From: Thermodesulfobacteriota bacterium
GTDB taxonomy: Bacteria; Desulfobacterota; WTBG01; JAGOGO01
Assembly: GCA_026625185.1 (NCBI GenBank)
Contig: CP113000.1
Span: forward strand, 1,965,622-1,997,621
Direction of reading: 5' to 3'
Length of the DNA: 32,000 bases
A program made the position numbers and the translations under genes. Below are positions 5,421 to 24,685 of the stretch, piece by piece. Position 1 is the first letter of the stretch. Every line of letters begins with the position of its first letter. The notes beneath the pieces are model-generated. The model saw only the letters and a list, made by a program, of their open reading frames with translations, searched no databases and was not told the DNA's origin.

Positions 5421-7445
5421 CTAAACAGTAACATTAAAGTGCTCCCTGCTTTCTTCGTCCCAGACCCGGCACGCTTCGATAAGCAACATTTCGGTACTGT
5501 CAAAAATTTTCTGATCCAACAGTTGAGCATCAGGGTCCAGGATAAAAAGACCATGTTCCCAGCGCACTAAAAGATTAAAGGCCGCAACTCCTTCGACCTG
5601 TTTGTATCGGGCATTGATAACCTGTCCCTGGTCGAAGAATACTTCACCATTTTCCTCCTCCTTAAAAAGTTTAAGGGCTCCGGTCTTCCCTCCCGCGGAG
5701 AGCATTTGAATAAGGTCGGTAACGTGGATTTCCGCCAAGTTACCGGTAATGCCTTTTTTAGTCGAAGCGGACTTGGCTTTTTCTTGAGCTTTTTGGAGAG
5801 TATGTTTGATAAAATTCTGAATCTTGGCAATGAGGATGCTTGTGTTATAGGGTTTGGTAATAAAATCATCAGCGCCAACATCAAAACCCTTGCTTACGGT
5901 AGCGGGGTCGTGTTTTTCTGACAAAAAAACGAAATTGATGTTCCGATATTTATCATTAGCCTTTATTAGATCGCAAATAGAGAATCCATCGAGAGGTTTT
6001 GTATTTACCTCTGAGATAATAAGACACACCGGACTACTATCAAGGATAGCGATAACTTTTTCCGTGTCCCTTAACGGATAAGGGAAAATACCATTTTTTT
6101 TTAACAAAACGGACAGGTGATCGAGTTCTTCAAGGTTAGTATCAATGATAATTGCGCGGGGTGAGGATTCATCAATAAAGAGGTCTAAGATAATTTCCTC
6201 CAATAGGTTGACGATTTCCGGATCAAAGTATTTTTCTTTTAAAGAAAGGATAATGTCAAAGGAGCTTTTGAAGTTTTCATACCCTTCAAAATTAAGGAGG
6301 TGGATTAAGGCATCGACGGTTGCAATGATTCGGGAACCGAGCGGGATATCCTCACCTTTAAGGCCATCCGGGTCCCCTTCGCCGTCGTATCGTTCAAGGG
6401 TGTGAAGAAGAATTTTGTGAACTTCCGGGGGGAGGCGAGCGCCCTCATAAAGGCGCTCCGAGGATTGGGAATACTTTTTTAAAAGGTCACGGTGGTGTTC
6501 AAAATTGAAATTAAAAAGCGTTAAATGCTCGGGCGCAGCCATACAACAATCATGTAAATACGCTGCCAGAACATTGTAATACGTTTCTATTGCTTTGAGT
6601 CCTAGGTTCTGGGAAATTTCTTTTACGAGCTTGGCGACACTCGCGGAATGGCCCCGATAGCTTTCCCCTTTATACATTTCCAAGACATTGATCACGATAT
6701 TAAGCACCTCAATGAAGGTGTCGTCACTCAAAACCGACAAGGGGGATATTTGGTCCGCAAGGCGTTTTTGGCTTTCTTCTTCCGTTTTAGCGGGAGTGAG
6801 AATTTGATCGTCTATTATTACTGTTTTTGACTTTCGCTTTAGAACTTGAGTGGGTTTCAGGACTGGATTATCTGACTCAGTAAAGTCAGAATCGAGCAGC
6901 ACCGCAGAGTCTTCTTTTGGAACAAAGCTGGCAATGCTCTGGGGACTTTCGGTTTTGATCACTGTTTTTAGATTTTCCAGCGAAGAAGAATCATTTCCGT
7001 AAAATTTTTTTATCCCCGCTTTAATGGTGGAGTCTAAGGCGATATAAAGTTCTATTTCATTATATCCGGAGATATGTTTGATTAACTTGGACAGTTGTTT
7101 GTTCTCTGGGTCAGCAATCGCGACAGAGACTGTTTTGGATTTATCATAGCAGAAGAAAGGAAACACATTGTGTTTTAATGCAAAATCAGAAGGGATGAGT
7201 TCTAATACCCATTGGGGGATAGTCATTTTTAAAAGCTTGTCAGAAGAAATATATCTGACCTTAAAAAGTCCTGCCAGACACTTAAGGAGATCTATCTCAT
7301 TTAAAAAACCCAATTCAACCAGGAGTTCACCTATTTTTATCTGGGAATCCCCTCCTTTTTGCTGGCTAAGGGCGGCATTTAATTGCTCTTGGGTTATGAA
7401 TCCCAGCTCAATGAGTATTTCGCCGATCTTTTTGTTGCCGGTCAT
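5421..7445 (-). CDS. Multidomain signalling protein: MshEN/T2SSE_N-like N-terminus, degenerate HD-GYP (GDP variant), receiver with Glu at the phospho-site, C-terminal DUF4388
   Basis: 674 aa.
- N-terminus: KIGEILIELGFITQEQLNAALSQQ followed by KIGELLVELGFLNEIDLLKCLAGL, a tandem of the MshEN type.
- HD-GYP-like region: GHSASVAKLV...YLHDCCM...HTLERYDGEGDPDGLKGEDIPLGSRIIATVDAL, with GYP replaced by GDP and HHE replaced by HTLE.
- Receiver-like region: AIIIDTN...CLIISEVNTKPLDGF...FVFLSEK...FITKPY, with Asp->Glu at the acceptor position.
- DUF4388-like region: GNLAEIHVTDLIQMLSAGGKTGALKLF...GQVINARY...GVAAFNLLVRWEHGLFILDP. Confidence 0.75.
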   Translation of the reverse strand: MTGNKKIGEILIELGFITQEQLNAALSQQKGGDSQIKIGELLVELGFLNEIDLLKCLAGLFKVRYISSDKLLKMTIPQWVLELIPSDFALKHNVFPFFCYDKSKTVSVAIADPENKQLSKLIKHISGYNEIELYIALDSTIKAGIKKFYGNDSSSLENLKTVIKTESPQSIASFVPKEDSAVLLDSDFTESDNPVLKPTQVLKRKSKTVIIDDQILTPAKTEEESQKRLADQISPLSVLSDDTFIEVLNIVINVLEMYKGESYRGHSASVAKLVKEISQNLGLKAIETYYNVLAAYLHDCCMAAPEHLTLFNFNFEHHRDLLKKYSQSSERLYEGARLPPEVHKILLHTLERYDGEGDPDGLKGEDIPLGSRIIATVDALIHLLNFEGYENFKSSFDIILSLKEKYFDPEIVNLLEEIILDLFIDESSPRAIIIDTNLEELDHLSVLLKKNGIFPYPLRDTEKVIAILDSSPVCLIISEVNTKPLDGFSICDLIKANDKYRNINFVFLSEKHDPATVSKGFDVGADDFITKPYNTSILIAKIQNFIKHTLQKAQEKAKSASTKKGITGNLAEIHVTDLIQMLSAGGKTGALKLFKEEENGEVFFDQGQVINARYKQVEGVAAFNLLVRWEHGLFILDPDAQLLDQKIFDSTEMLLIEACRVWDEESREHFNVTV

Positions 7446-7752: not shown

Positions 7753-8607
7753 TCATTTCTTGGATTGATCAGATGATCCTTCGCCCCAGGCTTTTTTACT
7801 TCGTTCGATCTTTTTGCGTACCGAATCCCAGGTTTTTGTGACTAAGAAGGATTCGCGCCATCGGGAGAGCATACGAAGGTACATCTCCCACGGAACAGTA
7901 AAAGTAAGCTCATCGGTTTTGACGTATCGTCGTTCGGTTGGGTCCCACCCCCCCAGCACTGCCTTTGACTTTCCTTGGGCGAGGAGGTGTAACGGCCACG
8001 TTAAAATACCGGCACAGCCTGGACCAAATGGGGACAAGACTGCTTCAAAGTCGTTGGTTGCAAAGGTGACAAGTTGATGGAGGCCGCAGATGCTTTCAGG
8101 CCGGGCGAAAAAAATAACTAATTCCGGCCTTTCAAAATCGGTAAAAAGGGAAAGCGGTTTAAACACACAAAAAAAAGCCGGCGCAGGTCGGGGATCAATG
8201 GTCTTAAAGAACATTTTGGTCACCTCCGGGGACTCAAGATAGCGTTCCCCCTCAAAACGGTTGGGAATACCTGTGGAGACGAACCGGGCGACAAAATCTA
8301 AAGGACGCCTTAAAAACCCCAAATAAAAGGCTCCGCCAAAACAGCCGAAATTTTCTCTGCTAAAATAGGCGCTGGTACCCTTTTTACGCGCTCTCCAGAT
8401 TAATCCCATTACACAAGAAAAACTTTCAAAGACTAAAACCCAATCAATTTTATTTCCTTTTTCATCTTCCAGAGTAGGTAGAATGCGGGATTTTGGTTTA
8501 AAGCCATCTTTTGGCTCCTGAGCGGTATAATACACGCCAAAAGGCTCTTCTGATATGCCGAGGGTTTCCAAGAAAGCTTTTGATTCGCTGAGACTATTTT
8601 CTGACAT
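7753..8607 (-). CDS. DUF169-family protein (function unknown)
   Basis: 284 aa. The layout resembles my memory of DUF169 (COG2043): ...FSCVMGLIWRARKKGTSAYFSRENFGCFGGAFYLGF... and ...PELVIFFARPESICGLHQLV...GPGCAG.... This is a by-eye family call only. Confidence 0.5.
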   Translation of the reverse strand: MSENSLSESKAFLETLGISEEPFGVYYTAQEPKDGFKPKSRILPTLEDEKGNKIDWVLVFESFSCVMGLIWRARKKGTSAYFSRENFGCFGGAFYLGFLRRPLDFVARFVSTGIPNRFEGERYLESPEVTKMFFKTIDPRPAPAFFCVFKPLSLFTDFERPELVIFFARPESICGLHQLVTFATNDFEAVLSPFGPGCAGILTWPLHLLAQGKSKAVLGGWDPTERRYVKTDELTFTVPWEMYLRMLSRWRESFLVTKTWDSVRKKIERSKKAWGEGSSDQSKK

Positions 8608-8762: not shown

Positions 8763-8778
8763 TGGCATTTAAATTGCT
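8763..8778 (+). promoter_or_regulatory. Sigma-54 (-24/-12) type promoter upstream of the che operon
   Basis: TGGCAT-ttaaa-TTGCT compared with the consensus TGGCAC-N5-TTGCW. GG and GC are separated by exactly 10 nt, with one mismatch (C->T). It lies about 130 nt upstream of the MCP start. No enhancer-binding protein gene is present in the window. Confidence 0.5.
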
Positions 8779-8788
8779 TTTCAGGGGA

Positions 8789-8840
8789 AAGGATTTTTTC
8801 CTTTTTAACAGGAATTTTCCCCAAAAGATAGGATTTTTTC
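8789..8840 (+). repeat. Three GGA-(A/T)5-6-CC units with 20-bp phasing in the presumed che leader
   Basis: The units are GGATTTTTTCC at 8791, GGAATTTTCC at 8811 and GGATTTTTTC at 8831. The first and third share AGGATTTTTTC. All lie between the sigma-54-like promoter and the MCP ribosome-binding site. Confidence 0.4.
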
Positions 8841-8910
8841 TTAAACACTGTCCAAAAGCATATCATAATTCAACAAGTTAATGGTTAGCATTTTTACCTG
8901 GAGGTGCAGA

Positions 8911-10572
8911 ATGTTAAGACATTTAAAACTTTCTTATAAATTATATTTTTTAAGTATAGGGACAATACTTCTTTTTTCTTTTACGTTGATTGGTGTGTGT
9001 CAAAAGTACAAACAAAGCCTGTTTAAACTGGATTATAAAAAGATTGAAGGGTTCAATCAAGTTGCGTGGGGGGTGTTAGATTTTTACGCTAAACAGGCTA
9101 ACGCAAATCTCATGACCAAGGATGAAGCTCAAGCCAAAGCAAAAGATGCAATAAAAAACCTGAGCTACAAAGAAACAAATGGCTCCGGTGGATATTTCTT
9201 CATTCTTGATACTGAACCACGGATGATTTGGCATCCTATTGCTTCGTATCTTGGAAAAAATCTTGCGAACGATGTTGACCCGGATGGGAAAAGGCTTTTT
9301 GTTGAAATGGTAGACATTGCCAAAAGCAAGGGAGAGGGTTTTTTGGATTATCGTTGGCCCAAACCCGGTAGCACTGCGCCAGTTGAAAAAATTTCTGCTG
9401 TCAAGATGTTACCGGAATGGGGTTGGATAATCGGAACGGGAATTTACATTGACGACAGCAAAGCCCAAGCTAACCAAATAGCTGGTTCTTTTATTTGGAT
9501 ACTTATTGCGATAGTGATTATCGCACTCCTCGCGACGTTTTTTATAGTCCGATCTATTACCCACCCAATTCAAGAAGTAATCACGTCCCTCACCAGCAGT
9601 GCTGAGGAGGTGGCATCAGCTTCTGGCCAAATATCCCAGGCAAGCCAGCAGCTCGCGGAGAGCTCCAATGAACAAGCCGCTTCCATAGAAGAGACCGCTT
9701 CATCTTTAGAAGAGATGTCTTCGATCACAAAGAAGAATGCGGAGAGCACAAAACTTGCGAGCCATTCGGCGGCTGATCTTATGGACTCCTTGGCAAAAGG
9801 AAAAGACGCCATGGCACGGATGTCCAACACGATTGCCCAGATCCAACAATCTTCAGATCAAACAACGAAAGTTATAAAAACTATCGAAGAAATCGCCTTT
9901 CAGACAAATTTGTTAGCTCTAAATGCAGCAGTGGAAGCGGCACGAGCGGGAGAATCCGGCCGGGGGTTCAGCGTGGTAGCCGAAGAAGTCCGCAACTTGG
10001 CTCGACGGTGTTCAGAAGAAGCCAAAAATACCGCTGCCTTCATTGAAGAATCTGTTAAGAATGCGCAAAGTGGGGTTCAGGTGTGCGGTGAAGTTGCAAA
10101 GATATTAAATAAAGTCGCTTTAGGAATAGAAAAAATGGCCCAGATGTCAGGAGAACTTTCCGCAGCGAGCGACGAGCAGGCCCGCGGCATCGAACAGATA
10201 AACGTTGCGGTTACTGAGATGGACAAAATCACCCAGGGTAATGCTGCAAATGCGGAAGAGTCAGCCTCATCAAGCGAACAACTTTCGGCTCAGTCGGAGG
10301 TGCTTTTTGGCTTTATAGAAGTTTTGATTGAATTGGTGAATGGAAATAAAAATAGACAGTTGAATCGTGGGGAGGCAGAAAAAATAGGTGGCATCAGCCC
10401 AGTGGGTACAAAGAAAAAAGACCTAAAGCCCCTCCCAAATGATATTAAGGGATTACCAGGCCGTAAACAAACGCACCCAAAAACACCAATGCTAATCCCA
10501 CTCCGGGAACCAAAGATCGCCAGGCCGGAACAACTTATCCCTTTGGAAGATAGTGATCTTAAGGAGTTCTGA
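8911..10572 (+). CDS. Methyl-accepting chemotaxis protein with a periplasmic sCache_2-like sensor and a long Pro/Lys-rich C-terminal tail
   Basis: The start at 8911 is preferred (GGAGG sits 6 nt upstream); the track start at 8881 lacks an SD. TM1 is [13 protein letters not shown]. Cache-like region: [17 protein letters not shown]...[14 protein letters not shown]...[15 protein letters not shown]2 follows. The signalling hairpin is [39 protein letters not shown] saw no obvious HAMP domain. Confidence 0.9.
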
Positions 10573-10745
10573 TAGAATACATTTACACCTCCTATCTATA
10601 TAGGAATTGTTCGACGCATCATGATTACCAAGATTTTTTAAGTATATGGCACCATCAAGTTCAAAATAAGTTATTTGAATTGCATTAGAAATATTTTAAA
10701 AAGAACAAAACAAGGGTGGGTTTAATAAGAAAAGGGGAGGAAAAA

Positions 10746-11111
10746 ATGAAGGTAATTGTGGTGGATGATTCATTGGTGATGAGAAAAATCATTGTCAATG
10801 TGGTTGAATCTTTAGGCTATGAAGGTGTTCATGCGACCAATGGAAAAAACTTATTAGAAATCTTGGAACACTGTGGTGGAGAAGTCGGGCTAGTCTTGCT
10901 TGATTGGAATATGCCGGGGATAAACGGAATTGAAGCTCTTAAAACTATGCAGAAAGACAGTCGCTTTCGTGCCATTCCGGTGTTCATGATTTCTACTGAA
11001 TCAGAAGATGCAAAAGTTGGAGAAGCTTTAAAAACAGGAGCAAAAGGCTATTTAGCAAAGCCCTTTACTCCAGAAGAGCTGGCGGCAAAAATAAAGGATA
11101 TTTTGGGGTAG
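10746..11111 (+). CDS. cheY: CheY-like single-domain response regulator
   Basis: The start at 10746 (MKVIVVDDS) has GGGGAGG 7 nt upstream. Canonical residues are present: DD (VVDDS), the acceptor Asp (LVLLDWNMPGING), Thr/Ser (FMISTES) and Lys (LAKPF). Confidence 0.9.
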   Translation: MKVIVVDDSLVMRKIIVNVVESLGYEGVHATNGKNLLEILEHCGGEVGLVLLDWNMPGINGIEALKTMQKDSRFRAIPVFMISTESEDAKVGEALKTGAKGYLAKPFTPEELAAKIKDILG

Positions 11112-11170
11112 CCAGTACTTACTGACGGTGGTATGGAACTTCAAGAAGTCCACTCTAACGCGGAGATTTT

Positions 11171-12022
11171 ATGAACAAAATAATTCTATATGACTGCAGT
11201 CAGGAAGTGACTGACATGGTTAACAATCTCTTTGGGAAAAAGGTAGCCATTGAAAATTCTTCCTTTGATGCTCAGAGGCCTCTTCAAGAATTCCGCATGG
11301 TTATTGTTGAGACCGGCAGTAAAAAAACCGAGCAGTTATTGCAAGAGATCAAAGCATTACGATATGCCTGTAACTTTAGAAACATTCCCATTATTGTGAT
11401 GAAAAAAAAAGGCGACACCTACCCTAACAACCCTTATCTTATGGCTGGCGCTACTGAAATTTTGTCTTGGGAAGCCCCGCCCTTAGCTTGTCGACAGATC
11501 CTCCAGGGGTATCTGATCCCGAACCGGAAACCGTTAGATCAAGAGATGGAATACCTTACCCCTTTTATTGACAGCACTAAACATATTTTGAAGACCATGA
11601 CTTCGATGGATGCTGAATATAAAGAACTATATTTTCCCAGTGACTTTCGAATATTTGGAGATGTTTCAGGGATCGTCGGGTTATCCGGAAAAGCAGAAGG
11701 GAATGCGGTAATTACTTTTTGTTGGGATTTGGCCCGAAAAGTTATTTCTCACATGATGCGTGTGACCGAAGATCAAATCAATGCTGAGTTTATTCACGAT
11801 GGGGTGGGGGAGCTGATAAATATGATCAGCGGATTTGCGAAAAAGTCTTTTGTTGGGAAGCCCTATCATTTTGAACTTTCAATACCCACTGTGGTGATGG
11901 GATCAGGCCATCAAATTGGGCATCCTGAAGAGGCAAGCATCGCTTTACTTATCTTTGATGTTGAAAAAAATTCCTTCGCCTTGCAGGTGTGCCTTAAACT
12001 TAAAATAGAAAAAGGCAATTAA
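11171..12022 (+). CDS. Degenerate receiver-like N-domain fused to a CheX/CheC-family phosphatase domain
   Basis: 283 aa. The C-terminal half carries the CheC/CheX/FliY signature D-x3-E-x2-N followed by Pro about 22 residues later (DGVGELINMISGFAKKSFVGKPYHFELSIP), plus GIVGLSGKAEGNAVITF. In the N-terminal ~115 aa, IILYDCS...MVIVETGSKK...PIIVMKKK resembles a receiver with Glu at the acceptor position and other conserved residues lost. Confidence 0.7.
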   Translation: MNKIILYDCSQEVTDMVNNLFGKKVAIENSSFDAQRPLQEFRMVIVETGSKKTEQLLQEIKALRYACNFRNIPIIVMKKKGDTYPNNPYLMAGATEILSWEAPPLACRQILQGYLIPNRKPLDQEMEYLTPFIDSTKHILKTMTSMDAEYKELYFPSDFRIFGDVSGIVGLSGKAEGNAVITFCWDLARKVISHMMRVTEDQINAEFIHDGVGELINMISGFAKKSFVGKPYHFELSIPTVVMGSGHQIGHPEEASIALLIFDVEKNSFALQVCLKLKIEKGN

Positions 12023-12024
12023 CT

Positions 12025-12058
12025 GGTACCATGTAAAAAAGGGTACAATGTAAAAAAG
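12025..12058 (+). repeat. Tandem 17-bp direct repeat just after the cheX-fusion stop
   Basis: GGTACCATGTAAAAAAG (12025-12041) is immediately followed by GGTACAATGTAAAAAAG (12042-12058), 16/17 identical. Confidence 0.8.
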
Positions 12059-12259
12059 TTTTGTTTTCCGGATTTTGCCCACCAGTAATCCAGGTGGGAA
12101 AATGGGCGAGTTTTCTATCGGTAATTTCCTCTTGCCGATTGAATAAACAGTCAGATGCAGGTAAGAAAAAATTCTTTGAAAAGGGGATTGCGCCATTCAC
12201 GGTGGACTGGCAGCTTTATCCTCCATGACTGGGAATGTAAAATTGAACGATAAACAACC

Positions 12260-14089
12260 ATGAGCGAAAAAAATGAAATCCTTTTAATTAACCGTGACAA
12301 AGGGTTTCTGGAGGACATGGCCGGGTCTCTCCGTCAAGCGGAATTTAAAGTTCATACCGCTTTTGGGATGCACGAAGCCTTGTTGGCCCTTACTTTTTAT
12401 CCCGTGGGTTTAATACTTTGTGATAATGTTTTACAGGATGTTACGGGATACGATTTTTTAAGGTTTTTAAAAAATGACCCGCTAAGGGACTCGGTCCCCT
12501 TTGTATTTTTTGTGCCCATCAATGACCAGGGACACGCTTTTAAAGCTTTTGAATTGGGAGCAGATGATTTTTTAGTGTACCCCATGGAAGTAGAGGATTT
12601 TGTCAGCCGGATAAAGGAAATAATGGCGCTCCAGTATCCTGCTGCAAAGGAAATTCCTGTTGATGGGTCCGGCAAAGCCTCTCCACTGTTACCCGCTGAT
12701 ACAACAACACCTCCGCAGGAACGACGTCGGGCCAAAAGGAAGCAGCCCTTGCCTAATCTAAAGGTCTCTCTTTCCAGGGATGAAATTCTTTGGATGCCGG
12801 GGAGAATAAAAAATTTTAGCCTCGATGGCATGTTAGTGATTACCTCTTTGCTGGGAAAGCCGGGGGTTTCACTTATAGTGAAGTTTTCACTGCCTCAAGG
12901 AGTTGTCACCATCAAGGGACACATTAAACATGTTGCTTTTGATGATTTTCGGCAACCAGTGGGCCTAGGGGTAACCTTTCCGGAAAATTCAGCGTGGCGC
13001 GAGATCAATGATTATTTTACTTCCCTTATTAACTCGGCAGACCCTGGAACCTCAAAAAAAGAATCTTGTGAACAACAAACACCTTCTCCTCCTCAGTGGA
13101 CAGGAGCCGGAAAAACAGTCTTTCTCCCTTACCAAGGATCGGAAGGAGAGGATTTCCTCCTGTCAGACAGTGCTCCGAGAACCGAAGAAGAAACGTATGA
13201 ATCCCGATTCTATCATAGCTTGGTGGGCAAGCAGCTCGGTTCCTATAAAGCAGTGTGTTTCATTGGCTCAGGCAGCATGGGGGGGGTTTTCAAAGGTTGG
13301 GATTCTGCTCTGGAGCGGGAGGTGGCGCTCAAAGTAATTTCTTTTGAGCTATCTTCCCAAGAGACTTTTCGGGAAATGTTCATTAAAGAAGCCCGATTGA
13401 TCTCCAAGCTCGACCATCCCAATATTGCACACATCTATTCCATTGGAGACACTGACGGCATTCTTTTTTTTGCGATGGAATTAATCGCCGGGGAAACTTT
13501 GTCGGATTTGATAATAGAACATGGCAACCTTAACACATTAAAGGGCTTGGATTATTTGTTAACGGTGTGTCAAACCTTAGACTTTGTTAGGCAAAAGAAT
13601 ATAATCCACCGCGATATAAAGCCGGAAAATATTGTTATCAATGACAAAGGGGTTTTAAAGATCGTTGATTTTGGAGTAGCCAAAAAAATTGATGTTAATG
13701 CCCCCGGAGAGATGCCGGAAGGTATCGTGGGGTCACCTCTTTATATCTCTCCTGAGTCAATTTCCGGCCACGTTATTGATCATCGCAGTGATATTTATTC
13801 TTTGGGCGCTACCTTTTACCATGTGTTTACCGGCTACCCCCCTTTTGAAGGTGATGATGCTAAAACCATTCTCCTTCACCACCTCAACAGCAAGTCCAGA
13901 CCCCTTAAGGAAAGAAACCCAAAGGTCTCTGTTTTTCTCTCCCGGGTTATTGAAAAGATGATGGCAAAAGACCCTCAGGAACGGTACCAAAACTACAAAA
14001 CCATTGTTCAGGAGTTACAGTCTTTCCGTTCAATGGTTATCCAAGCCAAAAAAAAGAAAAATAGTTTTTTACCCGGCACGGGGCAATAA
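12260..14089 (+). CDS. Atypical receiver - PilZ - Hanks-type Ser/Thr protein kinase fusion
   Basis: 609 aa.
- REC-like region: LILCDNVLQDVTGYDFLRFLK has the acceptor Asp, but the conserved Lys is replaced (FLVYPM).
- PilZ motifs: RRAKR (the RxxxR type, from nt 12722) and NFSLDG (the D/NxSxxG type).
- Kinase motifs: GSGSMGGVFKG, VALKV, HRDIKPENIV, DFGVAK, GSPLYISPE.
- The SD before 12260 is weak, so the start is less certain. Confidence 0.85.
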   Translation: MSEKNEILLINRDKGFLEDMAGSLRQAEFKVHTAFGMHEALLALTFYPVGLILCDNVLQDVTGYDFLRFLKNDPLRDSVPFVFFVPINDQGHAFKAFELGADDFLVYPMEVEDFVSRIKEIMALQYPAAKEIPVDGSGKASPLLPADTTTPPQERRRAKRKQPLPNLKVSLSRDEILWMPGRIKNFSLDGMLVITSLLGKPGVSLIVKFSLPQGVVTIKGHIKHVAFDDFRQPVGLGVTFPENSAWREINDYFTSLINSADPGTSKKESCEQQTPSPPQWTGAGKTVFLPYQGSEGEDFLLSDSAPRTEEETYESRFYHSLVGKQLGSYKAVCFIGSGSMGGVFKGWDSALEREVALKVISFELSSQETFREMFIKEARLISKLDHPNIAHIYSIGDTDGILFFAMELIAGETLSDLIIEHGNLNTLKGLDYLLTVCQTLDFVRQKNIIHRDIKPENIVINDKGVLKIVDFGVAKKIDVNAPGEMPEGIVGSPLYISPESISGHVIDHRSDIYSLGATFYHVFTGYPPFEGDDAKTILLHHLNSKSRPLKERNPKVSVFLSRVIEKMMAKDPQERYQNYKTIVQELQSFRSMVIQAKKKKNSFLPGTGQ

Positions 14090-14157
14090 TGACATGGGGA
14101 GGTTTGAAGAGTTGAAATTATGAGTGAGGAGATTATTACGAAAAGGAAAAGTTAATA

Positions 14158-16422
14158 ATGGCCCTGGACAATAAAACAATCAAGGAAGAAGGTTTTTCCC
14201 CGATGAATTATTCGGAGGACATGTTGGTTCATTCTGTTGATGATTTGGCAACGGCTCTTATCCAACTTGAACCATATGATAGTTCAGGCATCAGCCATTT
14301 TCGGGAATCGCTTAAAGAGGTTATGGAGAATGGATCATTTTCTGAACCAGTGAAAAAAAAATTAAAGGAAGCATTAGGGAAAATCGAAAGAGTGATAGAG
14401 GGAAAATCTTCTGCCACTGAAGCTGCTTTAATCGAGACCGGTAAAATCATTGAAGAAGTGATGCAGGAAATGGCCCCGCAAGAGTTTGCCTCTGCGCCCA
14501 AAAGCTTTGTTTCCGAAGAGGAAGTCGAGGCTTTAGAAAAAAAAGAACTCAAGTATTTTTCCAACGATGCCGACCATAGCCTTATAAAAGAATTTATTGT
14601 TGAAAGCATGGAGTTAATTACCTGGGCGGAAGAGGCTTTGCTTACCTTAGAAAATGATCCTGATGATGGCGAGGCAATTGCCACTGTTTTCCGCGCTTTT
14701 CATACCATCAAGGGGACTTCTTCTTTTCTTGAGCTAAAAATTGTATCCGAACTTGCTCACCACACCGAGTCACTGTTTAGCCAAGTTCGAGAAGGTTCAA
14801 TCCGCTACGGAGGTGGTTATGCTGAGGTTGCGCTTTATTCGGTGGACATGATCAAAGAAGTTATCCGTTTGGTAGAAGAAGCCTTGCGGGGGAAGCCCTT
14901 GTTAAAACCACCAGGATACAATGAACTCATCCATCTGCTCCAACATCCCGAACAAGCCTGCGCTTTGAGAGGGGTGGAAGAAATAACTCCCCCTTCAGCT
15001 CGACTAGGTGATATCTTGGTTTCTCAGGGAGTGGTGAAACGTGAAGAATTAGAAGAAGCGGCACAAAAGAAAGGCGATAAACCTTTAGGGGTGGAACTTT
15101 TAAAATTAAAAACAGTGTCAATAAAAGACGTTGCCAGAGCCCTTCGAACACAAAAGCGGATGCAAGGAGTCACTCCAGAGCTTGAATCGTCGGTACGAGT
15201 TAGAACTGACCGACTTGATAAATTAATTGATATGGTTGGGGAAATGGTCATCGCTCACTCGATGGTTACTCAGGACAGTATGAAGATGGGAGAGGACTAT
15301 TATGAATTTCAGCAAAGGGTTTCCCACACGGGTAAGATTGTTCGGGAACTTCAGGACTTGAGCATGTCGATTCGGATGGTTCCCCTTAAATCAATCTTCC
15401 AGAGAATGACTCGACTGGTCCGTGATCTTGCGAATAAATCGGGGAAGCACATAAATTTTTTAACATTTGGTGAGGAAACTGAGGTTGACCGCAACATGGT
15501 TGATCTTGTCGCCGATCCTCTGATGCACATGGTGCGAAATTCAGTAGACCACGGCATAGAATTTCCCGAAGAGCGGGAAAAGAACGGGAAATTTCGCGAG
15601 GGAACAATAAAACTTTCTGCTTATCATTCGGCAGGCAATGTAGTGATAGAAATAGAGGATGACGGGCGAGGTCTTGACCGAGATGTCATTTTTGCGCGGG
15701 CCCGGGAGAAAGGGCTTATTAGTGACGTAAGCTTACATACAGAACGGGATATTCTCAACCTGATCTTTGAGCCGGGATTTTCCACTGCCGACAAGGTTAC
15801 TGATATTTCCGGCCGGGGTGTGGGTCTGGATGTGGTAAAAAAGAACATTACCGCTCTGCGAGGCAAGATTGAGGTCCAGTCAAATGCCGGAAAGGGTTGT
15901 GTCTTTAAAGTTCGGGCACCGCTTACCCTCGCTATTATTGATGGGATGATTATTCGCGCAGGCAAAGAACGATACGTCATTCCTACCGTTTCGATCGTGA
16001 AAGCGTTACAGCCTCAAGAGAAAGATCTCAGCACGGTGCTTAAAAAAGGAGAAATGCTTTTCTTGCAAGGGAAATTCATTCCGCTGTTACGATTAGGTGA
16101 CCTTTTTGATATTGAAGATGCTCAGTCGGAACCCACGCAGGCCATTGTTGTTGTGGTTGAAGATAATGAACGGCATACGGGAATTGTGGTGGATGAACTT
16201 CTTGGACAACAGCAGATTGTTATTAAGTCGTTGGGAGAGGCATTGAGAGATTTTCGGGGTGTTTCCGGAGGCGCGATTATGTCGGATGGACGGGTGGGAC
16301 TAATACTCGATGTAGGCGGGTTGGTCAAACTTGCTCACGCGGAGCAGGCAGAATGGGAGGATAGAAGGAGAGTGAAAGAAATTACAAAAATAGAAAAGGA
16401 GGATAAACATGAGTTATCATGA
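14158..16422 (+). CDS. cheA: CheA histidine kinase with an N-terminal extension and an MshEN-like insert in place of P2
   Basis: 754 aa. The Hpt motif is FRAFHTIKGTSSFL. Dimerisation region: VRVRTDRLDKLIDMVGEMVIAHS. HATPase motifs: HMVRNSVDHGIE, DDGRGLD, GRGVGLDVV. A C-terminal CheW-like domain is present. Residues 282-332 (nt 15001-15153) read RLGDILVSQGVVKREELEEAAQKK-GDK-PLGVELLKLKTVSIKDVARALRTQ. About 135 aa of unassigned acidic sequence precede Hpt. Confidence 0.9.
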   Translation: MALDNKTIKEEGFSPMNYSEDMLVHSVDDLATALIQLEPYDSSGISHFRESLKEVMENGSFSEPVKKKLKEALGKIERVIEGKSSATEAALIETGKIIEEVMQEMAPQEFASAPKSFVSEEEVEALEKKELKYFSNDADHSLIKEFIVESMELITWAEEALLTLENDPDDGEAIATVFRAFHTIKGTSSFLELKIVSELAHHTESLFSQVREGSIRYGGGYAEVALYSVDMIKEVIRLVEEALRGKPLLKPPGYNELIHLLQHPEQACALRGVEEITPPSARLGDILVSQGVVKREELEEAAQKKGDKPLGVELLKLKTVSIKDVARALRTQKRMQGVTPELESSVRVRTDRLDKLIDMVGEMVIAHSMVTQDSMKMGEDYYEFQQRVSHTGKIVRELQDLSMSIRMVPLKSIFQRMTRLVRDLANKSGKHINFLTFGEETEVDRNMVDLVADPLMHMVRNSVDHGIEFPEEREKNGKFREGTIKLSAYHSAGNVVIEIEDDGRGLDRDVIFARAREKGLISDVSLHTERDILNLIFEPGFSTADKVTDISGRGVGLDVVKKNITALRGKIEVQSNAGKGCVFKVRAPLTLAIIDGMIIRAGKERYVIPTVSIVKALQPQEKDLSTVLKKGEMLFLQGKFIPLLRLGDLFDIEDAQSEPTQAIVVVVEDNERHTGIVVDELLGQQQIVIKSLGEALRDFRGVSGGAIMSDGRVGLILDVGGLVKLAHAEQAEWEDRRRVKEITKIEKEDKHELS

Positions 16423-16942
16423 TGATGTTTCGCAGCTTGGTGGAATAAAGGGAGGGCTGGCAGATAAGGCGGAGAAGTACTTAACCTTTAACCTTGCGGC
16501 TGAAGAATATGGTATCGAAATTTTAAAAGTGCAGGAAATTATCGGACGCATGCCGGTAACCAAGGTTCCCCGCACCCCCCCTTTTATTCGAGGCGTAATC
16601 AATTTACGCGGCAAAGTGATTCCGGTATTTGATTTGAGATTGAAATTCGGCATGGAGATTAAAGAGGATACCCCTAGGACATCAATTATTGTTGTTAAAA
16701 TTAAACGCTCAGGACATCACATGACCATGGGTGTAATTGTGGATGATGTATATGAAGTCGTGGGTATTGAGGCAAAAGATATTGAGCCGACACCTGAGTT
16801 TGGCGCCAATATAGATACTGATTTTATTTTGGGGGTCGGAAAGATAAATCAGAAAGTCGTGATGCTTCTCGATGTCGATAAAGTTTTATCAGGGGGAGAA
16901 GTTACACTCGTTGATCAGGTTACCCACGTTCAAGAAAAATAA
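16409..16942 (+). CDS. cheW: CheW coupling protein
   Basis: 177 aa. YLTFNLAAEEYGIEILKVQEI...RGVINLRGKVIPVFDLR is the typical CheW pattern. AGGAGG lies 6 nt upstream, and the gene overlaps the cheA end by 14 nt. Confidence 0.9.
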   Translation: MSYHDDVSQLGGIKGGLADKAEKYLTFNLAAEEYGIEILKVQEIIGRMPVTKVPRTPPFIRGVINLRGKVIPVFDLRLKFGMEIKEDTPRTSIIVVKIKRSGHHMTMGVIVDDVYEVVGIEAKDIEPTPEFGANIDTDFILGVGKINQKVVMLLDVDKVLSGGEVTLVDQVTHVQEK

Positions 16943-17075
16943 ATTAAAGGCTTGCTTCTTCACGCCCGGTAAAGGGGAAAAATGATTTTGACCGGATGAA
17001 GAAAGATCAAAGAGATCAGAAATGAAAAACTTTTTTAGGTTTTAAAAAAGTTATCCTTTATCGTAAGAGGCATTT

Positions 17076-17945
17076 GTGTTATTAGAAAAAAGAACAATTC
17101 AAAATTGCGTGAGCGAACAAAAAAATACTGTAGACTCAACATCGCTTGACTTGAGTCAAAAACATTTTTTAAAGATAAGCAAAACAGTTCACCAAATGTG
17201 CGGCATTAGCCTTCACGAGGGGAAAAAGGCCTTAGTGCGATTCCGTCTTTTGAAGCGGCTTCGGGCGTTGGGAATGGAAAGTTTTAAAGAATATATTGAC
17301 TTTCTTGAGCATGATAGTTCCGGAAAAGAAATCCGTTCGCTGATTGATGTTATGACCACCAACAAAACCAACTTTTTTCGGGAGATAACCCATTTTAATT
17401 ACCTTCGCGAGAATATTTTACCTGACCTCAAGGTGCCGCACCTTCGTTTCTGGTGCGCCGGGTGTTCTTCGGGTGAAGAACCTTTTTCATTAGCTATTGT
17501 GCTGCGCGAAGAAATAGAGAACATTGACATAAGGGATATTAAGATTTTAGCAACCGATGTCTCTTTAAAAATGCTGGAGATGGTTCGTCAGGCATACTAT
17601 TCTCCAGAAATGCTCGGTGATATAACTCCACTGCTGCTGCAAAAATATTTTATCCGAGTTCGAAGCGAATCAACGACGCTTTACCAGGTTAAAGATGAAA
17701 TACGGGCGATGGTCCGCATAGGCCGGATTAACTTGATAGAACCCTGGCCCATGAAAGGTCTTTTTCATGTTATCTTTTGCAGAAATGTCATGATCTATTT
17801 TGACCGGCAAACCCAGCAGGAGCTTATAAATCGTTTTTGGGAATTTCTTCAAACCGGCGGGTACCTCTTTCTTGGTCATTCGGAGAGCCTTTCGGCCATT
17901 AGTCATAATTTTAAATATATGACCCCAGCGGTCTACCGAAAATAA
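17076..17945 (+). CDS. cheR: CheR chemotaxis protein methyltransferase
   Basis: 289 aa with a GTG start and AAGAGG upstream. Motifs seen: TNKTNFFRE, and the SAM-binding region RFWCAGCSSGEEPFSLAI ... IFCRNVMIYFD. Confidence 0.9.
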   Translation: MLLEKRTIQNCVSEQKNTVDSTSLDLSQKHFLKISKTVHQMCGISLHEGKKALVRFRLLKRLRALGMESFKEYIDFLEHDSSGKEIRSLIDVMTTNKTNFFREITHFNYLRENILPDLKVPHLRFWCAGCSSGEEPFSLAIVLREEIENIDIRDIKILATDVSLKMLEMVRQAYYSPEMLGDITPLLLQKYFIRVRSESTTLYQVKDEIRAMVRIGRINLIEPWPMKGLFHVIFCRNVMIYFDRQTQQELINRFWEFLQTGGYLFLGHSESLSAISHNFKYMTPAVYRK

Positions 17946-17967
17946 AAAAATCTTATCTGACGAGACC

Positions 17968-18438
17968 ATGCACATTCGCAAGGAGATTATTTATCACGTT
18001 TTGGAAGAGATTCTGGAGAACTTAGCTTTTCTCTTTTTTGCGCCGGACGACACCCGGGATACCATGGACTATAATTTGGCGGTTGCGGCCAAGATATCCT
18101 TTACCGGCCTTTTTTCAGGCATGCTGGTTCTTGCTATTTCTAATCAGATTCTTCCTGAAATAGCTCGAAACATGCTTGGGGTAGACGAAGACATTCCTGT
18201 TCATCACCAGCACGACGCCTTTAAAGAGCTTCTCAATGTGATCTGTGGAAACATGCTGCCCGCGATCGCAGGGAAAAGAGAAGTTTTTACTATTGGTGTT
18301 CCCGATATCATTTCCCCGGAAGAAATGACCGCGTCAGCTTTTCGTTGCCCCACAACATCCATGGCCAAAGCAGAACTGGATAGTGGTAAGATTGATTTTT
18401 TTTTACTTATTGATGGCGAAGAGATCCCCGAAACATAG
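17968..18438 (+). CDS. CheX/CheC-like small chemotaxis phosphatase-family protein
   Basis: 156 aa. It has the signature D-x3-E-x2-N (DAFKELLNVICGNMLPAIAGKREVFTIGVP) with Pro at the same spacing as in the 11171-12022 protein. The gene sits between cheR and cheB. Confidence 0.6.
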   Translation: MHIRKEIIYHVLEEILENLAFLFFAPDDTRDTMDYNLAVAAKISFTGLFSGMLVLAISNQILPEIARNMLGVDEDIPVHHQHDAFKELLNVICGNMLPAIAGKREVFTIGVPDIISPEEMTASAFRCPTTSMAKAELDSGKIDFFLLIDGEEIPET

Positions 18439-18482
18439 GGTGTTAAAAAATTATTTCTGGAGGAAATGGGAAGATTAAGCGA

Positions 18483-19541
18483 ATGATCAAAGTTCTTATT
18501 GTAGATGATTCTGCGGTCATCCGTAAAATTTTGACCGAGGAACTGTTTAAATACCAAGATATCGACATTATCGGCACTGCGGTTGACCCTTATATCGCCC
18601 GGGATAAAATCGTGCGCCTTCGTCCGGATGTTATTACTCTTGACTTAGAAATGCCCCGGATGGATGGTCTCTCATTTTTGGCGAAACTGATGCAGTATTA
18701 TCCTGTGCCGGTGGTAATACTGAGTTCCTTTACGCCGGAAAATAGCGAAAATGCTTTACGAGCCTTAGAATTAGGTGCGGTTGAAGCCATTTGTAAACCG
18801 GGGTCTTCATATGCTGCTGCAGATGTTTCTAGGAGGTTGGTTCAGGCTATTCGGGCGGCAGCGTCTTCACGGATCGTAAGTTTAAAACAATCAGTCACTA
18901 CCCCAGCCATAGGGCAACTTAATAACCTTCACATCCAAACCGCTGACAAGGTAATTGCTATTGGCGCCTCTACCGGAGGAACCAGGGCTATCGGGATTGT
19001 GCTTATGAGCCTTCCTAAAAATACGCCTGGTGTCTTAATTGTTCAACATATGCCGGAAAGCTTCACTCACGCTTATGCGGAAAGATTAAATAAAATGTGC
19101 TTGCTTGAGGTGAGGGAAGCTAAGGATAATGATCATGTAAAACCGGGAGTAGCATTAATTGCACCCGGCGATCGACATATGATACTTAGCCAAAGCAGAG
19201 GGAAAAATGTGGTAAAGATTAAAGAAGGCCCGCCAGTTAATTATCAAAGGCCCAGTGTTGATGTATTATTTCAATCAGTAGCTCGATGCGCCGGGGAAAA
19301 TGCAATGGGGGTTTTGCTGACCGGTATGGGAGCTGACGGCGCCAAAGGAATGCTTGCTTTATATGAACGCGGGGCTTACACTATAGCACAGGATGAGGAG
19401 AGTTGCGTGGTATTTGGCATGCCACGGGAAGCGATAAAACTTGGCGCGGTTGATAAAGTTGTTTCTTTGCAAGAAATCCCCCGGACGATTATTAAGGCTT
19501 CAGATAATCCACTGATAAAACCGCGGGTAAAAAGATTATAA
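18483..19541 (+). CDS. cheB: CheB protein-glutamate methylesterase (REC + esterase)
   Basis: 352 aa. The receiver is canonical (VDDS, ITLDLEMPRMDG, KP). The esterase catalytic motifs are GASTGG, QHMP and TGMGADG. Confidence 0.95.
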   Translation: MIKVLIVDDSAVIRKILTEELFKYQDIDIIGTAVDPYIARDKIVRLRPDVITLDLEMPRMDGLSFLAKLMQYYPVPVVILSSFTPENSENALRALELGAVEAICKPGSSYAAADVSRRLVQAIRAAASSRIVSLKQSVTTPAIGQLNNLHIQTADKVIAIGASTGGTRAIGIVLMSLPKNTPGVLIVQHMPESFTHAYAERLNKMCLLEVREAKDNDHVKPGVALIAPGDRHMILSQSRGKNVVKIKEGPPVNYQRPSVDVLFQSVARCAGENAMGVLLTGMGADGAKGMLALYERGAYTIAQDEESCVVFGMPREAIKLGAVDKVVSLQEIPRTIIKASDNPLIKPRVKRL

Positions 19542-19671
19542 CCTGAGGTTTTTTAGTTAGTTGCCGATTGATGTGGCAAAACAGACAAAAAAAGGATTTA
19601 TTAAAAAAAATCATTATCAGCGAAAAAATTTTTAAAAGAGAAAAATAGGTAAAAAATCGGATACTCCCGCC

Positions 19672-20157
19672 TTGACAAATTATTTTCTCAAGCCTGGCTA
19701 CATCTTTTTGCCTTCGAAATCAGTGTCGATCTCAACGGTGCTTGGCTCTAGTGTTTCGGTCTGTATTTATGATCGGAGGCGGAAAGTAGGAGGAATGAAT
19801 CACTTTAGGCTTCCTTATACCCGGGAGAAGCATATAGCGACCCCGATATTTGGGAACGTTGCCACGCTGGCTCTGATCCGGATGATGCTCGAAGATGGTT
19901 CTAAATTAAAACACTTGGAAGCACAAATTTTCGGGGGGGCGCATAATTTCAAACTTTGTCCCCAGAATATTGGATTAGAAAATATTAAGATTGCCCGGAG
20001 AATCTTGGTACGGAAGAGCGTACCCATTGTTTCGGAAGATGTTGGAGGAATGAAAGGAAGAAAAGTTGTTTTTTCCACCAATTTTAATGAAATCGTTGTA
20101 CTCCGCGTAGAACGTCTCCGGAGGTCTGACTGGTACCCTTATGATGAGGACCGTTAG
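19672..20157 (+). CDS. cheD: CheD chemoreceptor glutamine deamidase
   Basis: 161 aa. LGSSVSVCIYD...GGMNHFRLP...GG..GRKV is the CheD pattern. TTG is the first possible start after an in-frame stop at 19633 and has no clear SD, so the 5' boundary is uncertain. Confidence 0.8.
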   Translation: MTNYFLKPGYIFLPSKSVSISTVLGSSVSVCIYDRRRKVGGMNHFRLPYTREKHIATPIFGNVATLALIRMMLEDGSKLKHLEAQIFGGAHNFKLCPQNIGLENIKIARRILVRKSVPIVSEDVGGMKGRKVVFSTNFNEIVVLRVERLRRSDWYPYDEDR

Positions 20158-22443: not shown

Positions 22444-23337
22444 TCATCCTGAGGCAAATAGCCCAATAGCGTTCAGATCCTCCGCCGTGTTAATCCACCC
22501 TTCCTTTCCGTCAATACGGACCTTCACCCATATATCCGCACCCACGGATAGACATAAGACCTCCGATCCCTCTCCCCAGATGATGAGGACATTGCCGGCC
22601 ACGACATCGACTTTGGAGTCTATCTTAACCACAATGTGTGCCGCGGTCCCGCTGCGTTCGTTGGGTTCACGGAACATGCGCACGAATGTCATCTCTTGTT
22701 CCCGGGTAGTGACTCGGACTCCATTGACCGGCATTTCGCAACCTTCCTCGGCGAATCCATGACCCGTCTGGTACATACAATGTTGTCCTGGCGCAAACTT
22801 GCCCTCGCGCCAGTCTATGCGCAACGGAACGGAAACGAAAAAGTATCCTGTCCAAACCCGAATTTTGATCATATCCGGTAGAATTCGGGTCAGATTCCCT
22901 ATGCGGTTGATGGTTCCGGGAACGAACTCGCCCCATTCGCCCTCAGTTACCAGAGGCTTGCCAAAGGGCGCAAGCTTGCCTCCAACGACACCCAGTATCT
23001 GCCAGGGACCTCCAGTAAGTGGTGCTGAAGGCAAACACCCCGACTCAATCAGGAATCCCGTACCGTTGCTGCCACGGAGCAGTCGGATGTCCGCCGAGCA
23101 ACTCTCGGTAAATGTTCCCTCCTGTATCTCGAATGGGTAGAATTTCTGGTACTGGATCTCGTCGGTGGCATCACGGATATCGAGCGATACCAGCGTCCGA
23201 GAATCGAGGCCAGCCTGAGACTGATGTTCCGATTTGCGTGTGGTCTCTTTTTGCCCGACAGCGAGTCTCGGTGCATGACCGTAACCTGCCCAAAGGACCA
23301 ATAAAGTCAAAATCGACCTCGAAACGATTTGCTTCAA
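22444..23337 (-). CDS. Hypothetical exported protein (signal peptide; possible SH3-like C-terminus)
   Basis: 297 aa. TTG start with GGAG 8 nt upstream. The N-terminus MKQIVSRSILTLLVLWAGYGHA is signal-like. The C-terminus IWVKVRIDGKEGWINTAEDL resembles a bacterial SH3 domain. The GC content is high relative to neighbours. I recognised no family. Confidence 0.6.
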   Translation of the reverse strand: MKQIVSRSILTLLVLWAGYGHAPRLAVGQKETTRKSEHQSQAGLDSRTLVSLDIRDATDEIQYQKFYPFEIQEGTFTESCSADIRLLRGSNGTGFLIESGCLPSAPLTGGPWQILGVVGGKLAPFGKPLVTEGEWGEFVPGTINRIGNLTRILPDMIKIRVWTGYFFVSVPLRIDWREGKFAPGQHCMYQTGHGFAEEGCEMPVNGVRVTTREQEMTFVRMFREPNERSGTAAHIVVKIDSKVDVVAGNVLIIWGEGSEVLCLSVGADIWVKVRIDGKEGWINTAEDLNAIGLFASG

Positions 23338-24499: not shown

Positions 24500-24685
24500 A
24501 GACTTGGGTCTTTTTGATAAAAGTTGAGGCTGAGGAAGCGGTAAATCCCAACGAGATTTTACTTTCGGTTTCAGATCATTTCCCGCTACCAGCGTCCCAT
24601 TCAGCTCACCATCGGTCGCAAAACGGTCTTTCAACATTGCCGAACCATTGCGGCATAACAATATCAATCCGCATAAGGCGCAGGG

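Follow-up and report, generated by a model that had tools for sequence, protein, structure and literature searches.

Cyclic di-GMP (c-di-GMP), the "settle or swim" messenger, is known to talk to chemotaxis mainly through accessory PilZ proteins that act on the motor, on CheR or on the receptors. A chemosensory operon of an uncultured Thermodesulfobacteriota bacterium (GTDB lineage Bacteria; Desulfobacterota; WTBG01; JAGOGO01) raises the question of whether the messenger may also enter at the histidine kinase CheA and at the response regulator CheY with its phosphatase CheX. The operon lies in a stretch of 32,000 nucleotides (nt), here called the window (GenBank assembly GCA_026625185.1, contig CP113000.1, positions 1,965,622 to 1,997,621 of the forward strand); coordinates are positions within this 32-kb window, and domain calls are from Pfam scans unless another model is named. 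We propose, with a probability of about 0.45, that it encodes a pathway of the flagellar type in which c-di-GMP tunes CheA and, via a Ser/Thr kinase with a PilZ domain, CheX/CheY. The locus itself would, at somewhat less than even odds, be a chimera in which a flagellar-type che core lies directly downstream of a conserved three-gene cassette.

An earlier annotation made from the letters alone (the sequence-only reading) had described ten co-directional genes forming a complete excitation plus adaptation set. All ten are real open reading frames (ORFs) on the + strand with the domains assigned to them, and the methyl-accepting chemotaxis protein (MCP), CheA, CheW, CheY, CheX, CheR, CheB and CheD are all present. 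The extent given for the operon, 8763 to 20157, holds for the genes and fails at its start, since the first codon at which mcp could start is 118 nt downstream of position 8763. The operon is made up as follows.

8881-10572, + strand: MCP with a periplasmic sCache_2 sensor (MCPsignal, 151 bits; sCache_2, 120 bits)
10716-11111, + strand: CheY, canonical receiver, cassette gene 1 (Response_reg, 93.8 bits)
11171-12022, + strand: pseudoreceiver-CheX fusion of 283 aa, cassette gene 2 (CheX, 68.5 bits at aa 165-258)
12023-12259, no strand: unusually long intra-cassette spacer of 237 nt, which holds an indel of about 200 nt
12260-14089, + strand: REC-like-PilZ-Hanks-type Ser/Thr kinase of 609 aa, cassette gene 3 (Pkinase, 173 bits; Response_reg, 44.4 bits; PilZ, 23.8 bits)
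14158-16422, + strand: CheA with N-terminal region, Hpt (H182), MshEN_N-like insert, dimerisation domain, HATPase_c and CheW-like domain (Hpt, H-kinase_dim, HATPase_c and CheW)
16409-16942, + strand: CheW (CheW, 129.7 bits)
17076-17945, + strand: CheR methyltransferase (CheR, 194 bits; CheR_N, 54 bits)
17968-18438, + strand: stand-alone CheX phosphatase of 156 aa (CheX, 48.3 bits)
18483-19541, + strand: CheB methylesterase with a canonical receiver (CheB_methylest, 220 bits; Response_reg, 68 bits)
19672-20157, + strand: CheD deamidase (CheD, 67.3 bits)

Distances between the ten genes range from a 14-nt overlap to 237 nt.

A three-gene cassette mostly found apart from che operons

Species-representative genomes were scanned with the REC-PilZ half of the kinase, which gave 34 true loci, and tblastn searches with the window proteins followed. 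The hosts were Desulfatiglandales, Desulfobacteraceae, metagenome-assembled genomes of Syntrophales and the cultured Syntrophus buswellii DM-2. The order CheY, pseudoREC-CheX, kinase was found in 31/31 Desulfobacterota loci with enough contig, with no counter-example; the other three loci were interrupted by contig ends. The sequence-only reading had suggested a search for kinase orthologues adjacent to cheA in other genomes. Such neighbourhoods do occur, but che core genes stood beside the cassette in only 3 of the 34 species-level loci (L004, L005 and L036). Since the cassette is fixed and a che core is so seldom adjacent to it, the PilZ-kinase is, as judged from gene order, a cassette gene and not specifically a che-operon gene.

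Where a che core is present, it follows the cassette in the window, in the 87 to 88% relatives L004 and L005 and in the 70% relative L040, which has the cassette and then cheA-cheW-cheR-cheB. In L036 the core lies upstream of the cassette, in the order cheA-cheW-mcp-cheR-cheR-cheB. The linkage of cassette and core arose in two different arrangements, the second (L036) independently. The cassette stood alone in all three genome-derived neighbourhoods that were read with Pfam, among them that of the 61% relative L041. In Desulfatiglandales the cassette is followed by a second gene that has a kinase domain only. In S. buswellii DM-2 (L034, 11939-17945) genes for a CHASE2-Ser/Thr kinase, a PP2C phosphatase, an FHA protein and a YkuD L,D-transpeptidase are found downstream of it, by their domains a complete set for Ser/Thr signalling, and this in an organism that is in culture. 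The presence of the cassette in this strain, at NZ_CP175563, 55913-76698, makes experiments feasible.

The cassette kinase has intact PilZ motifs and an atypical receiver

As the sequence-only reading had it, a protein with PilZ and Ser/Thr kinase domains is encoded between the cheX fusion and cheA. It has three parts.

12278-12613, + strand: atypical receiver, aa 7-118 (hhalign versus CheY, 98.9%)
12719-12991, + strand: PilZ domain, aa 154-244 (above the Pfam gathering threshold)
13253-14014, + strand: catalytic domain, aa 332-585 (Pkinase, E = 1e-50; NCBIfam PknB-type model, 274 bits)

At least 120 full-length homologues with 48 to 100% identity were retrieved, and those that bear a source name are labelled Thermodesulfobacteriota, Desulfobacterota, Desulfobacteraceae or Deltaproteobacteria. 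The PilZ domain scored 23.8 bits in the whole protein and 27.4 to 28.5 bits as an isolated segment (PF07238, gathering threshold 22.5), and it was matched individually in 15 of 17 members of the kinase family. Both PilZ motifs are intact, R156-R-A-K-R160 (RxxxR) and N185-F-S-L-D-G190 (NxSxxG). Conservation in the family is at least 90% at R156, R160, N185 and G190; at position 187 the most frequent residue, S, is found in less than 70% of the members. The AlphaFold2 model (predicted local distance difference test [pLDDT], 75.5) contains a receiver fold, a disordered linker with the RxxxR motif, and six strands plus a C-terminal helix at a pLDDT of 71 to 89. When the REC-PilZ model was submitted to Foldseek, the list was filled by receiver matches, and the PilZ family sequence profile gave no PilZ match among PDB sequences; the barrel fold is thus a putative one. 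The kinase motifs VALK, HRDIKPxN (HRDIKPEN here), DFG and SPE are conserved across the family.

The kinase's N-terminal domain is a receiver by homology (the hhalign value given above) and by fold (Foldseek, E = 4e-9). Its phosphorylation residues, and those of the other receivers of the locus, were read from an alignment with Escherichia coli CheY and PhoB (D12, D13, D57, T87, K109), with the following result.

Cassette CheY receiver: D, D, D, S, K; canonical
CheB receiver: D, D, D, S, K; canonical
Kinase receiver: N, R, D, V, Y; atypical
N-domain of the CheX fusion: D, C, E, K, gap; pseudoreceiver
Receiver of the neighbouring gene at 5421-7445: D, T, E, S, K; pseudoreceiver with Glu at the phospho-acceptor

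Within the window, canonical receivers are confined to CheY and CheB. In the kinase the five signature positions are N11, R12, D55, V85 and Y107, and only the equivalent of D57 is kept. N11, Y107 and P108 are invariant in the family, D55 and V85 are at least 90% conserved, and R12 is the majority residue only. Since the kinase receiver lacks four of the five phosphorylation residues, direct His-Asp phosphotransfer from CheA to the kinase is unlikely, and we set it aside as the main mechanism. The branch into Ser/Thr phosphorylation suggested by the sequence-only reading is thus improbable if it is to run by this route. That reading had named the pseudoreceiver of the CheX fusion only; the atypical receivers of the kinase and of the neighbour are absent from it. 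In all, the locus holds three non-canonical receivers.

The CheX fusion gave an AlphaFold2 model with a pLDDT of 82 and a predicted template modelling score of 0.73. Its C-domain matched CheX structures in Foldseek (3hm4, E = 8e-16; 3hzh), and its N-domain, as had been proposed, has a REC fold (6rh8_C, TMt 0.72; 3nhz; hhalign versus CheY, 86.7%). The catalytic residues D210-x3-E214-x2-N217-x21-P239 are invariant in the family and fit the published CheX active-site consensus, D/S-x3-E-x2-N-x21-P; the stand-alone CheX carries the motif D-AFK-E-LL-N-x21-P. The fusion family is small, with 322 clusters among 5.8 billion. The cassette CheY is 50 to 74% identical to other cassette CheYs and 35 to 38% identical to the CheYs of flagellar clusters.

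CheA carries an MshEN_N-type insert in place of P2

In CheA the Hpt, dimerisation, HATPase_c and CheW-like domains are all above the Pfam cut-off, and H182 lies within a conserved FHTIKG motif. No P2 domain was matched on aa 217-346, even at E values up to 10. P2 is an auxiliary domain that is absent from over half of CheAs (2023 CheA domain survey). An MshEN-type tandem motif had been noticed where P2 normally lies, and this observation stood.

15001-15153, + strand: tandem MshEN_N-type motif of CheA, aa 282-332 (NCBIfam NF053729)

The segment reads RLGDILVSQGVVKREELEEAAQKK-GDK-PLGVELLKLKTVSIKDVARALRTQ and covers all 53 positions of NF053729 ("cyclic di-GMP-binding, MshE-related"), with 40.9 bits as an isolated segment (cut-off, 38). 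The same model was matched by 28 of 29 members of the CheA clade. A profile of the clade, compared with the PDB, retrieved GSPII-C of PilF (6f8l 302-360, E = 1.1e-8), GSPII-B of PilF, the c-di-GMP-binding domain of PilF in 8pfa and MshE (5htl, E = 0.008); indeed, the top 13 PDB matches were all MshEN-type domains. The insert is present in 118 of 119 retrieved CheA homologues, which hardly vary at R1 and G3 in motif I or at G3, V17, L21 and Q24 in motif II. A relaxed form of the regular expression of Wang et al. matched only 19 of 120 CheA homologues and was discarded as too rigid, as the alignment has the segment in nearly all of them. By these alignments, nearly all members of a large CheA clade, some of them encoded in flagellar gene clusters, carry the MshEN_N insert.

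The MshEN consensus comprises two copies of a 24-residue motif, (R/K/L)LGxx(LVI)(LVI)xxG(LVI)(LVI)xxxxLxxxLxxQ, with a five-residue spacer. Since the contact positions of motif II are near-invariant and the end of motif I is loose, one guanine pocket looks intact and the other weaker.

Two further features of these CheAs were seen. A third MshEN-type half-motif (PRIGDILVAQGKVDR...VEEA) occurs upstream of the tandem pair in nine CheAs (P0129, P0134, P0148, P0152, P0156, P0159, P0163, P0165 and P0177) and recalls the three-motif GSPII-C of PilF. Residues 1-132 (14158-14553) are conserved across the clade (e.g., "SLDDAAALLIQLEPDD") and have no Pfam match; a second, degenerate Hpt was considered for this region and rejected, as hhalign against the protein's own Hpt gave only 9%.

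The che core is related to those of flagellar clusters

Four CheA homologues from outside the window's own lineage were looked up, and two of them (P0126 and P0185) sit inside flagellar clusters with the order flhF-flhG-fliA-flgF/G/A/H/I/J-(flgM)-flgN-cheA-(cheW)-cheR-cheD-HDOD-cheY-cheX-cheB-flgK-flgL. The other two have the same che order, with no flagellar structural genes in view. CheA, CheW, CheR, CheX and CheB of the window are 42 to 73% identical to the proteins of these relatives. The P3-P5 core of CheA is 61 to 69% identical to six clade CheAs from outside its lineage, including both from flagellar clusters, and these six are 61 to 72% identical to one another. The stand-alone CheX is 42 to 46% identical to CheX of the flagellar-cluster che operons, and CheD is only 27 to 31% identical to CheD of related flagellar clusters. 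The window operon looks, by this comparison, like a flagellar-type core without its own CheY and HDOD gene that has been joined to the cassette. Since two of the four CheA relatives lie in flagellar gene clusters, the output of the pathway is probably flagellar. The sequence-only reading had found no output genes in the window, which is correct for flagellar genes, and had called the controlled behaviour unknown; the latter no longer holds in full, as the nearest relatives of CheA, CheW, CheR, CheX and CheB include those of flagellar clusters.

A proposed pathway with c-di-GMP input at two levels

From domain identities, motif conservation, gene linkage and phyletic pattern we infer ligand binding, phosphorylation steps, a kinase substrate and a flagellar output as follows. 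The MCP would control CheA, and CheA~P would phosphorylate the cassette CheY and CheB, because these have the sole canonical receivers in the window; the two CheX phosphatases would reset CheY~P. c-di-GMP would bind to the four-helix MshEN_N-type module in the linker between P1 and P3 of CheA, where P2 normally lies, and would stiffen or reposition this linker, which in turn would alter the access of P1 to the kinase domain (P4) or to CheY. c-di-GMP would also bind to the PilZ domain of the Ser/Thr kinase. CheA would not pass phosphate to this kinase, whose own action would stay inside the cassette, with the CheX fusion or CheY as its target; the two pseudoreceivers may pair to dock it. Via the kinase, c-di-GMP would set the lifetime of CheY~P and hence swimming behaviour. 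We propose CheX or CheY as the target because CheY, the CheX fusion and the PilZ-kinase are strictly co-inherited, because the kinase receiver is atypical and because there is a PilZ-CheX precedent in Vibrio. The divergently encoded protein with MshEN, degenerate HD-GYP, pseudoREC and PATAN domains may be a third c-di-GMP-binding partner of the module. Three candidate c-di-GMP receptor modules had indeed been counted around CheA by the sequence-only reading, and for each of them we found profile evidence, motifs and family-wide conservation consistent with that role.

If the insert binds the nucleotide, the central kinase of the pathway is a direct c-di-GMP sensor. A stronger version of the pathway, which we consider improbable, is that the cassette is a new chemotaxis control device, in which a c-di-GMP-switched Ser/Thr kinase phosphorylates CheX or CheY and the messenger thereby fixes the lifetime of CheY~P through covalent modification, combined here with c-di-GMP sensing by CheA via the MshEN_N insert. 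If true, this CheA would be the first chemotaxis histidine kinase to act as a c-di-GMP receptor. The cassette would make crosstalk between His-Asp and Ser/Thr signalling in chemotaxis directly testable.

Points against the pathway and alternative explanations

Several observations weigh against the pathway. In the whole CheA protein the insert scored only 33.6 bits with NF053729, below the cut-off of 38, and Pfam MshEN gave no match on the CheA linker even at E values up to 10; of the profile checks suggested by the sequence-only reading, PilZ passes its Pfam cut-off, and MshEN on CheA is carried by NF053729, as an isolated segment, instead of by Pfam. Motif I fits 9 of 11 key positions (A21 and K24 deviate) and motif II 8 of 11 (P1, K10 and T11 deviate); across the family V, A or variable residues replace L17, L21 and Q24 of motif I, and the motifs are separated by three residues (G306-D-K308) and not by five. 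Outside the window's own lineage, L040 is the closest relative to have a che core next to its cassette, and from its CheA (P0184, 11838-13802) the MshEN_N segment is cleanly deleted. This makes the insert dispensable for at least one cassette-linked CheA. As to the kinase, its substrate is a guess, and a PilZ domain with intact motifs may fail to bind c-di-GMP, as in PlpA of Myxococcus xanthus.

If the modules are relics, the CheA segment is a helical linker or an extension of the dimerisation domain, PilZ is a protein-interaction module, and neither binds c-di-GMP; the operon would then be an ordinary one for chemotaxis, to which an accessory kinase and decorative domains have been added. The departures of motif I and of the linker, the low whole-protein score, the missing Pfam match, the deletion in L040 and the precedent of PlpA all agree with this explanation, as do the PilZ domain of M. 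xanthus Pkn1, which is predicted not to bind, the degenerate HD-GYP domain of the neighbour and the remark of Wang et al. that some of the proteins they list have no recognisable binding motif. It is nevertheless unlikely in our view, for the positions that are conserved are the ligand-contacting ones (in motif I, R1 and G3; in motif II, G3, V17, L21 and Q24; in PilZ, RxxxR and N..G), the best structural homologue, GSPII-C of PilF, binds c-di-GMP with the same Pro substitution, and three independent receptor-type modules are found in one locus.

The joining of cassette and core is a further point of doubt. No che core is adjacent in 28 of the 31 complete cassette loci (~90%), and the coupling to CheA may be lineage-specific or incidental. 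Cassette and core would then be functionally independent and would have become neighbours through rearrangement in this lineage, for which the recent indels of mcp and of the ~200-nt spacer, signs of a locus in flux, also speak. Against such a juxtaposition, the genes are co-directional with only 68 nt between the kinase gene and cheA, the linkage arose independently in a second gene order (L036), and a cassette that pairs CheY with a CheY~P phosphatase depends on a donor of the CheA or histidine-kinase type. Moreover, the che core has no CheY of its own, which leaves the cassette CheY as the sole candidate output regulator. We therefore consider an incidental arrangement very unlikely.

The flagellar output, too, is open to challenge: no flagellar genes are found within the 32-kb window, and the flagellar-type CheY and the HDOD gene of the related clusters are missing from the operon. 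The pathway could instead serve an alternative cellular function and have Ser/Thr phosphorylation as its output, with CheY~P docking on, or being read by, the pseudoreceiver of the kinase and activating it toward targets outside the locus (e.g., pilus, polysaccharide or cell envelope) and with c-di-GMP as a co-input via PilZ. In its favour, the only CheY is of the cassette type and remote from its counterparts in flagellar clusters, MshEN and PATAN domains are found in the neighbour, the cassette of Desulfatiglandales is followed by a second kinase, and in Syntrophus the cassette precedes the CHASE2 kinase, PP2C, FHA and L,D-transpeptidase genes. MshEN and PATAN domains are typical of regulators of type IV pili. 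On the other hand, CheA, CheW, CheR, CheX and CheB are within the sequence range of the operons of the CheA clade, two of which lie in flagellar clusters, the kinase receiver lacks the residues usually needed for signal-dependent switching, and no target is identifiable. A non-flagellar pathway is thus rather unlikely, and we retain the flagellar-type pathway tuned by c-di-GMP.

Comparison with known systems

The combination of MshEN_N and CheA has been catalogued before: Wang et al. (2016, Nat Commun 7:12481, Suppl. Table 4) list a CheA of Aeromonas veronii (EKB11881), and also MshEN-HD-GYP-REC-DUF4388 (MXAN_2809) and (MshEN_N)2-CheX. Like the CheA of the window, the A. veronii protein has a tandem MshEN_N-type motif between the end of Hpt and the dimerisation domain, and a c-di-GMP input is predicted for both. 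[quoted passage not shown] No experimental test of c-di-GMP binding by an MshEN_N-CheA was found in the searchable literature, and the module is not mentioned in a 2023 genomic survey of CheA architectures. Our searches also turned up no earlier finding of the insert as near-universal in a large CheA clade with members in flagellar clusters.

GSPII-C of Thermus thermophilus PilF binds c-di-GMP with an affinity similar to that of MshEN, and it departs from the consensus only in motif II, where position 1 is Pro. The CheA insert shares this Pro and the layout with two motifs. The domains of PilF and MshE (6f8l, 8pfa, 5htl) are N-terminal regulators of pilus ATPases with a C-terminal subdomain, whereas the insert corresponds to the helical part of 51 residues only and has a three-residue linker and a weaker motif I.

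PilZ domains in related contexts are known from M. xanthus, where Pkn1 is a fusion of PilZ with a Hanks-type kinase and PixA, with PilZ and a receiver, binds c-di-GMP and regulates motility. For the PilZ domain of Pkn1 a lack of c-di-GMP binding has been predicted, whereas the window kinase keeps both PilZ motifs intact, and these are conserved. It further differs from both proteins in the order REC-like, PilZ, kinase, in its atypical receiver and in a gene that is locked to those for CheY and the CheX fusion. PilZ proteins that alter swimming through the CheY~P phosphatase CheX are known from Vibrio, namely PlzC of V. cholerae and, from suppressors, PlzD of V. vulnificus. There the two are separate, unlinked proteins, a kinase plays no part, and a physical interaction of PlzD with CheX was not detected, whereas in the window a kinase domain is part of the PilZ protein, whose gene adjoins that of the CheX fusion. 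The literature search found no described REC-like-PilZ-kinase family with intact PilZ motifs, and no described cassette of CheY, pseudoREC-CheX and PilZ-kinase or recurrent joining of it to che cores.

The che operons in flagellar clusters of Desulfobacterota resemble that of the window in a CheA with the insert and in CheW, CheR, CheX and CheB in broadly the same order. The window operon differs in lying outside a flagellar cluster, in the divergent CheD at its end and in the cassette in front.

The divergent MshEN/HD-GYP-like neighbour

Two genes upstream of the operon are transcribed away from it.

5421-7445, - strand: MshEN-degenerate HD-GYP-pseudoreceiver-PATAN/DUF4388 protein, divergent from the operon (MshEN, 47.8 bits; HD_5, 65.6 bits; Response_reg, 41.9 bits; DUF4388, 76.1 bits)
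7753-8607, - strand: DUF169 protein, between the HD-GYP-like gene and the cassette (DUF169, 138 bits)

The first had been counted by the sequence-only reading as an MshEN/HD-GYP-like protein. Its MshEN part was borne out: NF053729 scored 48.7 bits at aa 6-58 (cut-off, 38) with a near-canonical tandem motif, which is followed by the Pfam MshEN domain. An intact HD-GYP domain was not found. The HD dyad is preserved; at HHE the window and L004 have HTLE and the other three orthologues HTFE, and at GYP the window has GDP and the orthologues GYP, GFP or GLP. Among PDB entries the domain matches V-cGAP3 best, namely the first of its two HD-GYP domains. In the receiver (aa 425-560) Glu replaces the phospho-accepting Asp in all five orthologues. 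With its degenerate HD-GYP domain (GDP, HTLE), the protein is likelier to act as a sensor or adaptor that binds c-di-GMP than as an active phosphodiesterase. It shares its four-domain architecture with MXAN_2809 of M. xanthus. The gene adjoins the cassette in the window, L004, L009, L040 and L041, and the DUF169 gene is kept at the same position in L004, L005, L040 and L041.

Further features of the operon and the window

The mcp gene is absent at this site in L004, L005 and L040, where the DUF169 gene directly precedes cheY, and it is therefore, as far as these comparisons go, a recent, lineage-specific insertion into the operon. The C terminus of the MCP (10552-10572) ends in ...DLKEF after a long unstructured tail, which we take to be a faint likeness to the C-terminal pentapeptide that tethers CheR and CheB in some receptors, without the Trp of that motif. 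Homologues of CheY align from residue 10 or 11, and its true start is likely the ATG at 10746.

About 200 nt of the spacer between cassette genes 2 and 3 are present in L004, where they are ~88% identical, and absent in L005, which has a gap of 22 nt. A structured RNA or a repeat was considered for this spacer and rejected (fold z-score, -0.75; a single copy in the window; no Rfam match). The Rfam scan of the whole window matched no family and thus no c-di-GMP riboswitch, and a promoter and terminator scan of the operon gave counts not above those of shuffled sequence.

Elsewhere in the window are genes for a multihaem cytochrome, a copper ATPase, DUF169, BrkB and rubrerythrin and the start of a dcw cluster. 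Two ORFs on the - strand, 22444-23337 and 23615-24667 (297 and 350 aa), gave only sub-threshold Pfam matches (SH3_4 and DUF2846). The DUF169 gene and the gene for a heavy-metal P-type ATPase (2810-5269) adjoin the MshEN/HD-GYP-like gene also in the 61 to 70% relatives L040 and L041.

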